Source: Escherichia phage PNJ1902
Direction: 5' to 3' (one strand)
DNA: 64,000 nt
Sequence record: OK254197.1
How positions within the stretch are numbered: position 1 is the first letter of the stretch; each line of letters begins with the position of its first letter. A program made the translations under genes and the position numbers. Shown piece by piece: positions 36,256-43,507 of this stretch. The notes under the pieces were generated by a model, which worked only from the letters and a program-made list of their open reading frames with translations, was not told the origin of the DNA and made no database searches.

Positions 36256-36333
36256 GGTTCTCAAGCTCATATGGTATGAGCACCCGGCTCATAACCGGAA
36301 GGTACGTAGGTTCGAATCCTCGGGGAGCCACCA
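36256..36333 (+). tRNA. tRNA with CAU anticodon (Met/Ile2), tentative
   Basis: Acceptor GGTTCTC/GGGAGCC (2 GU), loop CTCATAA, TTCGAAT T-loop with weak 3-bp T-stem. Confidence 0.45.
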
Positions 36334-36836: not shown

Positions 36837-36913
36837 GGGGGTGTAATCGAATTGGCATAGGTACTGGACTTAAAATTCAGGTTTTGTGGGTTCGAATCCC
36901 ACCACCCCTACCA
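36837..36913 (+). tRNA. tRNA with apparent UAA anticodon but class I (short variable arm) architecture
   Basis: Acceptor GGGGGTG/CACCCCT, anticodon stem CTGGA/TTCAG loop CTTAAAA, 5-nt variable loop, T-arm GTGGG-TTCGAAT-CCCAC, CCA encoded. Confidence 0.45.
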
Positions 36914-38717: not shown

Positions 38718-38800
38718 GGGTCGTTAGCCAAGCGGTTTGGCGGTGGACTGTTAATCCATGTCGAAAGACAACGTAGGTTCGAATCCTACACGGCCCGCCA
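38718..38800 (+). tRNA. tRNA with class II architecture (13-nt variable arm, G73) but apparent GUU anticodon
   Basis: Acceptor GGGTCGT/ACGGCCC, 3-bp D stem, anticodon stem GTGGA/TCCAT loop CTGTTAA, variable hairpin GTC-GAAA-GAC, T-arm GTAGG-TTCGAAT-CCTAC. Confidence 0.4.
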
Positions 38801-40515: not shown

Positions 40516-40594
40516 AGATCGCTAGCTCAATAGGTTTAGTAGCATCCGACTTTTAATCGGAAGGTTCTGGGTTCGAGTCCCAGGCGATCTACCA
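40516..40594 (+). tRNA. tRNA-Lys (anticodon UUU)
   Basis: Acceptor AGATCGC/GCGATCT, anticodon stem TCCGA/TCGGA loop CTTTTAA, T-arm CTGGG-TTCGAGT-CCCAG, CCA. Confidence 0.6.
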
Positions 40595-41744: not shown

Positions 41745-41757
41745 AACAATTTATATG

Positions 41758-41851
41758 GTAGGTCAATCCAACGGCTGGCGCTGGACTCCGACTTGAAATC
41801 GGTTGATCGTAGTGATACGGTGTAAGGGTTCGATCCCCTTACCTACCTCCA
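41758..41851 (+). tRNA. tRNA-Ser (anticodon UGA), class II
   Basis: Perfect acceptor GGTAGGT/ACCTACC, loop CTTGAAA, long variable arm, T-loop TTCGATC, CCA. Confidence 0.5.
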
Positions 41852-42684: not shown

Positions 42685-42692
42685 AACAATAA

Positions 42693-42768
42693 GCGGTTAA
42701 GCACACGGGTTGTGCCGCAGGCCTTCCAAGCCTCGCTGAGTAGGGTTCGATTCCCTCTAGCCGCTCCA
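42693..42768 (+). tRNA. tRNA-Gly (anticodon UCC)
   Basis: Anticodon arm GGCCTTCCAAGCC as in E. coli tRNA-Gly(UCC), 3' end GCTCCA. Confidence 0.6.
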
Positions 42769-43039: not shown

Positions 43040-43193
43040 CCTAAAAGTAAAGATCGATAAACAAAAGAAACGTGTAGAAGTAGAGATTGGTGAAGAACGT
43101 GTAGCCTTCACCTTTGAATTTCTACAACAAATGGCAATGACAGTTATGACTGACAAGTCTCCTATTATTGAAAAAGAAATCCCGTTGGAATAA
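43029..43193 (+). CDS. Small hypothetical protein
   Basis: 54 aa ORF overlapping previous stop; below table cutoff. Confidence 0.35.
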   Translation: MADNLKVKIDKQKKRVEVEIGEERVAFTFEFLQQMAMTVMTDKSPIIEKEIPLE

Positions 43194-43201
43194 CGGGTTC
43201 T

Positions 43202-43288
43202 GCTGGGTTGGCAGAATGGTTGAATGCACCTGATTTGTAATCAGGAGGAGTAATCCCGTTGCAGGTTCGAATCCTGTGCCCAGCACCA
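43202..43288 (+). tRNA. tRNA with class II architecture (15-nt variable arm, A73) but apparent UGU anticodon
   Basis: Acceptor GCTGGGT/GCCCAGC, 3-bp D stem with 11-nt loop, anticodon stem CCTGA/TCAGG loop TTTGTAA, T-arm GCAGG-TTCGAAT-CCTGT, CCA. Confidence 0.4.
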
Positions 43289-43302: not shown

Positions 43303-43470
43303 ATGTTTAAACTCCTAGTAGTTATCTGGTATAGCCAATCAAACAGAGCTAATACCTCTCACGTTATAGACTTTAATACTAAAAATGAAGCTGAAGAAGC
43401 ATATGCTAATTTAATACAACGTAATAAAGAATCTCGTAGTATAGTTTATGAAGTGACTAAACTTTATTAA
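43303..43470 (+). CDS. Hypothetical protein
   Basis: 55 aa from ATG 43303 with RBS AAGGA. Confidence 0.4.
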   Translation: MFKLLVVIWYSQSNRANTSHVIDFNTKNEAEEAYANLIQRNKESRSIVYEVTKLY

Positions 43471-43478
43471 AAATTCAT

Positions 43479-43507
43479 TTGCCTTCTCTCTTATTTCTTG
43501 TTATAAT
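43479..43507 (+). promoter_or_regulatory. sigma70 promoter (T5 early type)
   Basis: TTGCCT-17-TATAAT + ATAAATTAATGAGAGG leader. Confidence 0.65.

Follow-up and report, generated by a model that had tools for sequence, protein, structure and literature searches.

A class II-like tRNA-Thr(UGU) with a serine-type D arm in a T5-like phage, and its relatives in phages and bacteria

To our knowledge, and in line with the textbook account, long variable arms in bacteria are confined to the tRNAs for leucine, serine, tyrosine and selenocysteine. A long variable arm together with an anticodon other than those of Leu, Ser or Tyr is found in allo-tRNAs, nematode nev-tRNAs and Candida tRNA-Ser(CAG), all of which keep serine or leucine charging and cause or allow recoding; in allo-tRNAs the acceptor/T geometry is 8/4 or 9/3. 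The same combination is present in the subject of this work, an 87-nt tRNA-Thr(UGU) gene in a stretch of 64,000 nucleotides (the window, here and below) from Escherichia phage PNJ1902 (OK254197.1), a T5-like phage (Tequintavirus, Demerecviridae). However, unlike the allo-tRNA group, this tRNA has the 7/5 acceptor/T geometry and an acceptor stem re-specified to match its anticodon.

The other systems closest to this gene are phage tRNAs that counter host defences directed against tRNA. The AriB nuclease of PARIS cleaves at the motif U36AAUC|A41, and the tRNA-Lys, tRNA-Thr and tRNA-Asn of phage T5 jointly neutralise PARIS; contacts beyond the anticodon stem matter as well, including D-loop positions 16-17 (PMC12409363). 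The OLD nuclease of phage P2 cuts tRNA-ThrU first, after C28 and C40 within a paired CNG motif, and phage tRNA-Thr(UGU) rescue cells from OLD, resisting it by changes in the CNG motif and a shorter stem. This rescue depended on decoding with an intact UGU anticodon; for the tRNAs examined in that study, competition was ruled out as the cause (PMC12445682). With T5 tRNA-Lys facing AriB and phage tRNA-Thr facing OLD, the 87-nt tRNA has in common an isoacceptor class shared with the targets, the phage family and the presumed pressure. On the other hand, the known nuclease-evading tRNAs escape through substitutions in the anticodon stem-loop or the D loop, whereas the 87-nt tRNA differs in architecture.

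Our results make it quite probable that the 87-nt gene encodes a functional, threonine-charged tRNA that reads ACA and replaces or supplements its host counterpart. The existence of the gene is already known, since it is annotated in many genomes. What appears to be undescribed in the literature searched is that it belongs to a conserved tRNA-Thr family combining a class II-like body with a D arm of the serine type, that this family spans phages and at least two bacterial lineages, and that in T5-like phages it alternates with a class I allele whose way of escaping nucleases is another. We found no description of a long arm in phage tRNA-Thr in a search that left older T5 tRNA papers in subscription journals outside its scope, and the word 'variable' is absent from the main text of PMC12409363, PMC10264068, PMC12445682 and PMC11464382.

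Threonine identity on a class II-like body

Among the 21 tRNAs that ARAGORN finds between 32.5 and 44.3 kb of the window, tRNA-Thr(tgt) is placed at 43202-43288 on the plus strand. Rfam model RF00005 matches the same positions with 58.9 bits (E ~1e-12; threshold 29 bits), aligning UUUGUAA as the anticodon loop and putting an 11-nt insertion within the variable region. An earlier note on this DNA had described an 87-nt tRNA with a 15-nt variable arm, a 3-bp D stem, A73 and the loop UUUGUAA, and the sequence bears out all of these; the perfect 5-bp anticodon stem and the Thr anticodon UGU hold by the sequence and by both programs, neither of which shifts the loop towards a Leu or Tyr anticodon. 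Since the two programs agree on UGU and the insertion sits in the variable region, an anticodon shift or an intron can be ruled out. A paralogue of a class II tRNA from the cluster was also ruled out: in global comparisons within the window even the top matches were weak, and none of them is a Leu, Ser or Tyr tRNA. As for a host origin, blastn returned no match to the 87-nt tRNA in 5,426 E. coli genomes.

The architecture is that of class II, as the 15-nt variable region exceeds the lower limit of 10 nt and folds into a stem-loop and the D stem has 3 bp, whereas the 4-5-nt variable loop of class I, usual in bacterial tRNA-Thr, is absent. The acceptor stem includes G1-C72, C2-G71, G4-C69 and G5-C68 and a U7-G66 wobble. 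U8 and G9 separate it from the D stem, which consists of G10-C25, C11-G24 and A12-U23 and leaves G13 and A22 unpaired; A15 (43216) pairs with U48 (43260). The bacterial Thr identity set comprises the same four acceptor pairs together with G34, G35 and U36 in the anticodon (PMC9976931, Table 1). All four pairs, G35 and U36 are thus present in the 87-nt tRNA, and position 34 is U in UGU isoacceptors, E. coli thrU included. G1-C72 and C2-G71 are invariant in the family described below (55/55). Because the Thr identity set is complete, we regard the gene as a structurally unusual tRNA-Thr and not as a mis-assigned or recoding tRNA, and by these rules we infer that it is charged with threonine. The mismatch between architecture and anticodon to which the earlier note had drawn attention therefore stands for the architecture but not for the identity, as acceptor stem and anticodon carry the full bacterial Thr set. 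The discriminator A73, listed in the same note, is there, but as A73 is also found in thrU and thrT of E. coli, it is no pointer to Leu or Tyr.

Such a body might nevertheless be charged by SerRS, on account of its class II shape, or by LeuRS, on account of A73 and A15-U48, so that ACA would be read as serine or leucine. A serine-type D arm, a variable-arm hairpin, the presence of A73 and A15-U48 in the T5-like members and the indifference of SerRS and LeuRS to the anticodon (PMC9976931) are all compatible with such mistranslation. However, bacterial tRNA-Ser have G2-C71 and G73, and C2-G71 is an antideterminant for E. coli SerRS (PMC9976931). Of the features of SerRS substrates, the 87-nt tRNA shares C11-G24 and G30-C40, but G2-C71 is replaced by C2-G71, G73 by A73 and the large variable arm by one with a stem of only 3 bp. 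For LeuRS, A73 and A15-U48 are determinants and A20a is essential for recognition (PMC9976931); A73, A15-U48 and G18G19 occur in the 87-nt tRNA, but position 20a is U and three rather than four nucleotides precede G18. Leucine is thus the one other identity with which there is some overlap. Most relatives are unlike the LeuRS pattern, having G15-C48 (48/55) and, in many cases, U73. TyrRS looks for A73 with U35 (anticodon GUA), and here position 35 is G. With ThrRS determinants conserved family-wide and a chromosomal thrU equivalent found throughout a bacterial phylum (see below), mischarging seems very unlikely.

A single-sequence minimum-free-energy fold of the 87-nt tRNA gives no cloverleaf, keeping the anticodon and variable hairpins (z = -2.25), and the proposed fold therefore rests on covariation. 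Relatives were gathered from IMG/VR by the D-arm motif, from IMG/VR by a D-loop-plus-anticodon pattern, and from one genome per bacterial species, and these scans recovered dozens of distinct sequences. MAFFT misplaced the variable arm; a covariance model built from 17 relatives was used instead to align 55 distinct sequences, an alignment that leans towards the modelled structure. Standard pairs fill 99% of its cells, 19 of the 23 pairs show changes on both sides, and the covariation score is 0.699, compared with 0.183 for shuffled data (0 of 500 shuffles reach the observed value) and at most 0.107 for slid partners. All five helices of the class II-like tRNA-Thr(UGU) family covary strongly, the variable arm included. 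Each of the three variable-arm pairs covaries, with 4-5 pair types and 99.3% pairing, and the stems seen in the alignment and in the parse include GGA/UCC, GAC/GUC, GGC/GCC, GAG/CUC, UGA/UCA, AUC/GAU, CCC/GGG and others. The parse, a model-free combination of a regular expression and a hairpin search, yielded the same stems independently and added UAG/CUA, CC/GG and GGGG/CCCC, so that stem length ranges from 2 to 4 bp; the loop is GNRA in most members. At the tertiary pair 15-48, 48 sequences have G-C and 7 have A-U, and no sequence breaks the pair. The L-shaped core is therefore under selection, as expected of a working tRNA.

The 87-nt tRNA is thus a real, constrained RNA with a fold far beyond chance. 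This bears directly on the idea that the gene is an artefact or a pseudogene, namely what is left of a serine tRNA after decay and a drift of its anticodon, UGA, to UGU. Although these anticodons are one base apart and the D arm is of the serine type, decay would hardly leave dozens of phages with a 100% identical gene, helices that all show compensatory changes and no broken pairs, and an acceptor stem systematically re-specified to Thr rules. We consider it extremely improbable.

Relatives in phages and bacteria and the likely descent of the body

The 87-nt gene is present at 90% identity or more in about 100 records of T5-like phages, mostly annotated as tRNA-Thr, and the surrounding 700 bases are 95-97% identical to those of many Salmonella and Escherichia T5-like phages. 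Outside this group, an 85-nt version of the class II-like tRNA-Thr(UGU) occurs in the Aeromonas T4-like phages PX29 and Ah1, and further versions occur in many unrelated uncultivated phage contigs, jumbo phages and genomes of 170-410 kb among them. Some large phages have two tRNA-Thr(UGU) genes. A class I and a class II-like gene are found together in L130 (746-819 and 2062-2145) and L159 (8209-8293 and 8839-8912), and two long genes are found in L131 (3221-3310 and 3320-3402). Such pairs hint that the two architectures are not redundant.

In the bacterial scan, all 64 pattern matches (64/64; loci L219-L282, for example L276:7236-7320 and L235:1398-1479) were class II-like tRNA-Thr(UGU). Most come from Eremiobacterota (Vulcanimicrobiota), where they are chromosomal, on contigs of up to several Mb, and have the acceptor strand GCCGACG and U73. 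These copies are close to a Tyr(GUA)-Gly(UCC)-Thr(GGU) cluster, mirroring thrU-tyrU-glyT-thrT of E. coli. An EF-Tu gene was not found beside them within the 8-kb loci, and the synteny thus rests on the Tyr-Gly-Thr(GGU) cluster only. A second group of matches belongs to Acetobacteraceae and Roseomonas. In both lineages the gene looks like the housekeeping tRNA-Thr(UGU). These chromosomal copies are the strongest evidence that the class II-like architecture is compatible with normal threonine decoding, since it would there serve cells as an ordinary tRNA-Thr.

Where might such a body have come from? The 19-nt D-arm motif was found in 112 viral tRNAs, which break down into 101 Ser (95 of them with anticodon UGA), 6 Thr(UGU), 4 Cys(GCA) and 1 Arg. 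The D arm of the 87-nt tRNA closely matches that of E. coli serT, a tRNA-Ser(UGA), and in some Eremiobacterota members a 21-nt stretch over the D arm is identical to serT. The near identity is apparent from the D arms themselves (GGCAGARUGGUUGAAUGC in phage tRNA-Ser, GGCCGAGCGGUUGAAGGC in E. coli serT, AAUGGUUGA as the loop in the 87-nt tRNA). Other points of resemblance to tRNA-Ser(UGA) are the variable-arm hairpin, often GNRA-capped, and the anticodon, UGA as opposed to UGU. The differences are equally clear: tRNA-Ser have G2-C71, G73 and a variable stem of 5-7 bp with about one unpaired nucleotide on its 3' side, whereas the 87-nt tRNA has C2-G71, A73, a 3-bp variable stem and a 4-nt 3' tail. 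Phage tRNA-Ser sharing the D arm likewise have stems of 5-7 bp, compared with 2-4 bp in the class II-like Thr family.

Compared with E. coli thrU and class I tRNA-Thr, it is the remaining parts that agree: the UGU anticodon, the four Thr acceptor pairs, A73 and the 7/5 geometry. With thrU, 4 of the 5 anticodon-stem pairs and positions 33-42 are identical. However, thrU has a 5-nt variable region in place of the 15-nt hairpin, lacks the 3-bp serine-type D arm with G13/A22 and the enlarged D loop, and has G15-C48 instead of A15-U48. By its sequence, then, the 87-nt tRNA is a mosaic, in which acceptor and anticodon arms following Thr rules are joined to a serine-type D arm and a shortened variable arm with a 3-4-nt 3' tail. 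The class II look therefore comes from the D arm and the variable hairpin, while the acceptor and anticodon arms are those of tRNA-Thr. Descent from a tRNA-Ser(UGA)-like ancestor whose acceptor stem was subsequently re-specified is plausible but unproven.

Two alleles and the tRNA-cutting nucleases

At the same locus, reference T5 (NC_005859) has a different gene, T5t03, a 75-nt class I tRNA-Thr(UGU) with a 5-nt variable loop. The two genes are alike in lying downstream of the same two small open reading frames (ORFs) and in having UGU, G1-C72, C2-G71 and A73, but the body sequence of T5t03 is unrelated to that of the 87-nt gene and its nuclease site is mutated, the anticodon stem having a U28/U42 mismatch and U39G (U36AAGC|A41). 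Phage records with the 75-nt allele number about 349, those with the 87-nt allele about 100. Relative to T5, the 87-nt gene, a 55-aa ORF and a promoter-like site have been swapped in together. The tRNA-Asn genes repeat the pattern. Reference T5 has a 78-nt class I tRNA-Asn with an altered stem (U36AAGUU41), whereas the window tRNA-Asn(GUU) (38718-38800, plus strand) is 83 nt long, with a GUC-GAAA-GAC variable hairpin, G73 and a normal 4-bp D stem, and its U36AAUC|C41 is still host-like. In the Thr and in the Asn gene, then, T5 has a class I allele with a mutated cleavage site and the window a hairpin-bearing allele with the host sequence.

In the 87-nt tRNA, C28-U-G/C40-A-G and U36-A-A-U-C-A41 are identical to E. 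coli thrU, and none of the cleavage-site substitutions typical of nuclease-resistant phage tRNAs is present. The published descriptions of resistance fit the 75-nt T5 allele and not the 87-nt one. The published T5 tRNA-Thr is almost certainly the 75-nt allele, because it was described with a substituted cleavage site and the 87-nt allele has none. We therefore rejected the published T5 tRNA-Thr experiments as tests of the 87-nt gene, reference T5 carrying the other allele. A cleavage site identical to thrU could also mean that the tRNA is a decoy, titrating AriB- or OLD-type nucleases with its host-like anticodon stem or being cut sacrificially while contributing little to translation, and non-productive complexes were indeed raised as a possibility by the authors of the PARIS study (PMC12409363). 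Yet the ThrRS determinants, encoded CCA, canonical T loop, 15-48 pair and U33/A37 are conserved as in a translating tRNA, the family has cellular homologues in bacteria, and the rescue from OLD depended on decoding by a UGU anticodon, with competition excluded for the tRNAs of that study (PMC12445682). There is accordingly only a slim chance that the tRNA acts as a decoy.

An indirect argument comes from phage Bas33 (HildyBeyeler; locus tags bas33_), which has the identical 87-nt gene, a class II-like tRNA-Asn and tRNA-Lys(CUU) only, without tRNA-Lys(UUU). Its tRNA-Asn is a third version, 86 nt long with a UCC-GCAA-GGA hairpin and a serine-type D arm. Bas33 escapes PARIS once it is given the T5 tRNA-Lys(UUU) alone (PMC12409363). 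The sufficiency of tRNA-Lys alone is an indirect sign that ACA continues to be decoded by the 87-nt tRNA when AriB is active, and that the gene functions during nuclease attack.

A simpler possibility is that the gene is an ordinary supply tRNA, boosting ACA and ACU decoding in an AT-rich phage, with the hairpin a neutral relic needed by the serine-type core. Together, ACA and ACU account for 74% of the window's Thr codons; ACA by itself contributes 25% of the Thr codons of window ORFs, or 12.9 per 1000, about twice the roughly 7 per 1000 of E. coli. The housekeeping role in Eremiobacterota, which needs no phage logic, and the nuclease recognition motifs kept in the anticodon stem also favour this view. 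Against it, the window tRNA-Asn and the tRNA-Thr(CGU) of L156 combine a hairpin of the same design (1 nt, 3 bp, GNRA, 3-4-nt tail) with a 4-bp D arm of class I type, and the hairpin is therefore not tied to the serine-type core. In L130 and L159 a class I Thr(UGU) gene coexists with a class II-like one, and the behaviour of Bas33 under PARIS is not what such a tRNA would predict. Finally, long variable regions are enriched among ANN-decoding class I identities, a set that overlaps the AriB targets (15/121 compared with 9/249 for the others in a biased set of 216 viral loci; Fisher p = 0.003, uncorrected for relatedness). On balance, plain supply with an idle hairpin is a serious alternative, although we would bet somewhat against it.

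A more speculative proposal is that the variable-arm hairpin and the altered D loop block docking of the nuclease while sparing the host-like anticodon stem. The hairpin starts 3 nt after the 40|41 cut site, and the same design occurs on two D-arm scaffolds, in Thr(UGU), Thr(CGU), Asn and Lys(CUU) tRNAs; closeness to the cut site, recurrence on two scaffolds and the ANN enrichment all favour shielding. It is weakened by the fact that an extra arm is also present on tRNAs for Trp, Cys and Glu and on tRNAs encoded by bacterial chromosomes. We therefore put the blocking of docking forward tentatively, and with slightly greater reserve its extension, in which the GNRA-capped hairpin would be a transferable shield that phages and some bacteria graft onto the tRNAs targeted by OLD/Toprim nucleases (Thr UGU/CGU, Asn GUU and Lys), with no cost to synthetase identity. 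The window tRNA-Lys(UUU) (40516-40594, plus strand) has U36AAUCG41 (A41G) and an enlarged D loop; the corresponding sequence is U36AAUCA41 in E. coli and U36AAACC41 in T5 tRNA-Lys, which resists AriB, so that the window version is unlike either.

The sequence of events we favour is as follows. The 87-nt tRNA would be made from the early phage tRNA cluster, receive t6A37-type processing and probably be charged with threonine by the host ThrRS. It would then read ACA and, by wobble, other ACN codons, supplementing the single host tRNA-Thr(UGU) and replacing the host UGU isoacceptor when it is removed by PARIS AriB or P2 OLD, for both of which it is the first tRNA to be destroyed. Escape would follow two routes: the 75-nt allele mutates its stem, whereas the 87-nt allele keeps a host-like stem and, speculatively, would be shielded by its extra arm.

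Several considerations weigh against this scenario. ThrRS is a class II synthetase that approaches tRNA from the variable-loop side, and the extra arm could therefore hinder charging by the E. coli enzyme. A73 together with A15-U48 overlaps the LeuRS determinants. By the published sequence rules, the 87-nt tRNA should be sensitive to AriB and, through the paired CNG motif, to OLD, and its expression, aminoacylation and nuclease resistance are inferred only. T5Mos, with a tRNA-Thr(UGU) of its own, still needed overexpressed tRNAs, and the Bas33 argument is indirect. Finally, the variable arm may be a neutral inheritance from a serine-tRNA-like ancestor.

Local context, other unusual tRNAs and implications

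The features of the gene and its surroundings are collected in Table 1. For the small ORFs flanking the tRNA, a PHROG search returned families of unknown function only. The hairpin just upstream overlaps the stop codon of a 54-aa ORF. Read on the minus strand, it was scored as terminator-like, and it may act in termination or in processing of the precursor. Its 5' arm lies within one copy of a 10-nt direct repeat, AATCCCGTTG (43178-43187), the other copy of which coincides with the variable-arm tail (43252-43261). The repeat is probably due to chance, because it is not conserved in the related phages L004 or L040.

Table 1. Parts of the 87-nt tRNA-Thr(UGU) gene and neighbouring features (window positions)
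Feature	Position	Strand	Basis or remark
Whole tRNA-Thr(UGU) gene, 87 nt with encoded CCA	43202..43288	+	ARAGORN, Rfam; family model R1, 106.9 bits
Acceptor 5' strand GCUGGGU; partner GCCCAGC at 43278-43284	43202..43208	+	Sequence
Serine-type D arm, 3-bp stem GCA/UGC, loop AAUGGUUGA	43211..43227	+	Sequence
Anticodon arm CCUGA-UUUGUAA-UCAGG, 5 perfect stem pairs; anticodon UGU at 43236-43238	43229..43245	+	
Variable region, 15 nt, A-GGA-GUAA-UCC-CGUU; tail ends in U48	43246..43260	+	
Variable stem GGA with UCC, GUAA tetraloop at 43250-43253; preceded by A44	43247-43249, 43254-43256	+	
T arm GCAGG-UUCGAAU-CCUGU, G49-U65 wobble	43261..43277	+	
Discriminator A73 and encoded CCA	43285..43288	+	Sequence
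55-aa ORF, phrog_15108 (function unknown)	43304..43470	+	Accompanies the 87-nt allele; absent from reference T5
Strong promoter-like site TTGCCT-17-TATAAT with TG	43479-43507		Accompanies the 87-nt allele; absent from reference T5
6-bp hairpin CCCGUU-GGAAU-AACGGG, 4 nt upstream of the tRNA	43181..43197		Conserved in reference T5

The two further mismatches between architecture and anticodon to which the earlier note had alluded in this cluster are also real: the tRNA-Asn(GUU) of 83 nt has a hairpin, and the tRNA-Leu(UAA) is only 77 nt long. The latter (36837-36913, plus strand) is the reverse case, a class I-like Leu with a 5-nt variable loop and A73, and the other viral loci frequently have short tRNAs for Leu(UAG) and Leu(CAA) as well. 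Three plus-strand tRNA-like genes were found by Rfam but missed by ARAGORN: a tRNA with a CAU anticodon at the position of T5 tRNA-Ile2 (36256-36330), a Ser(UGA)-like tRNA of 91 nt whose D arm is odd and which scored as Sec-like with 38 bits (41757-41847), and a Gly(UCC) tRNA (42692-42765).

In other phages, class I identity is combined with a variable hairpin in Trp(CCA), Cys(GCA), Lys(CUU), Glu(UUC) and 90-95-nt Ile(UAU) tRNAs. Loci with such tRNAs include L002:292-378, L034:830-915, L067:741-825, L159:9570-9652, L133:2069-2155, L033, L109, L153 and L156. The class II-like Trp tRNA of Erwinia phage pEp_SNUABM_01 has A1-U72, G2-C71, G3-C70 and G73, while the discriminator is U73 in the class II-like Cys tRNAs and G73 in the class II-like window tRNA-Asn; in all three cases the determinants match the tRNA's own anticodon (compared with PMC9976931). 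One phage contig with class II-like Thr and Trp tRNAs also has an ARAGORN call with the amber-reading anticodon CUA, labelled 'Pyl' (L141:9365-9440).

A conserved, covarying family of Thr tRNAs on a serine-type class II body departs from the textbook restriction of long variable arms. It is accompanied by tRNAs for Asn, Lys, Trp and Cys that have comparable hairpins, with the acceptor stem re-specified to suit the anticodon in each case checked. If the shield proposal is true, it would represent a second escape route, by architecture, beside mutation of the anticodon stem, and would explain the recurrence of class II-like versions of class I tRNAs in phage tRNA clusters. The two interchangeable Thr(UGU) alleles of T5-like phages amount to a natural experiment on recognition by AriB and OLD outside the anticodon stem, and may offer a guide for the design of nuclease-proof or orthogonal tRNAs.

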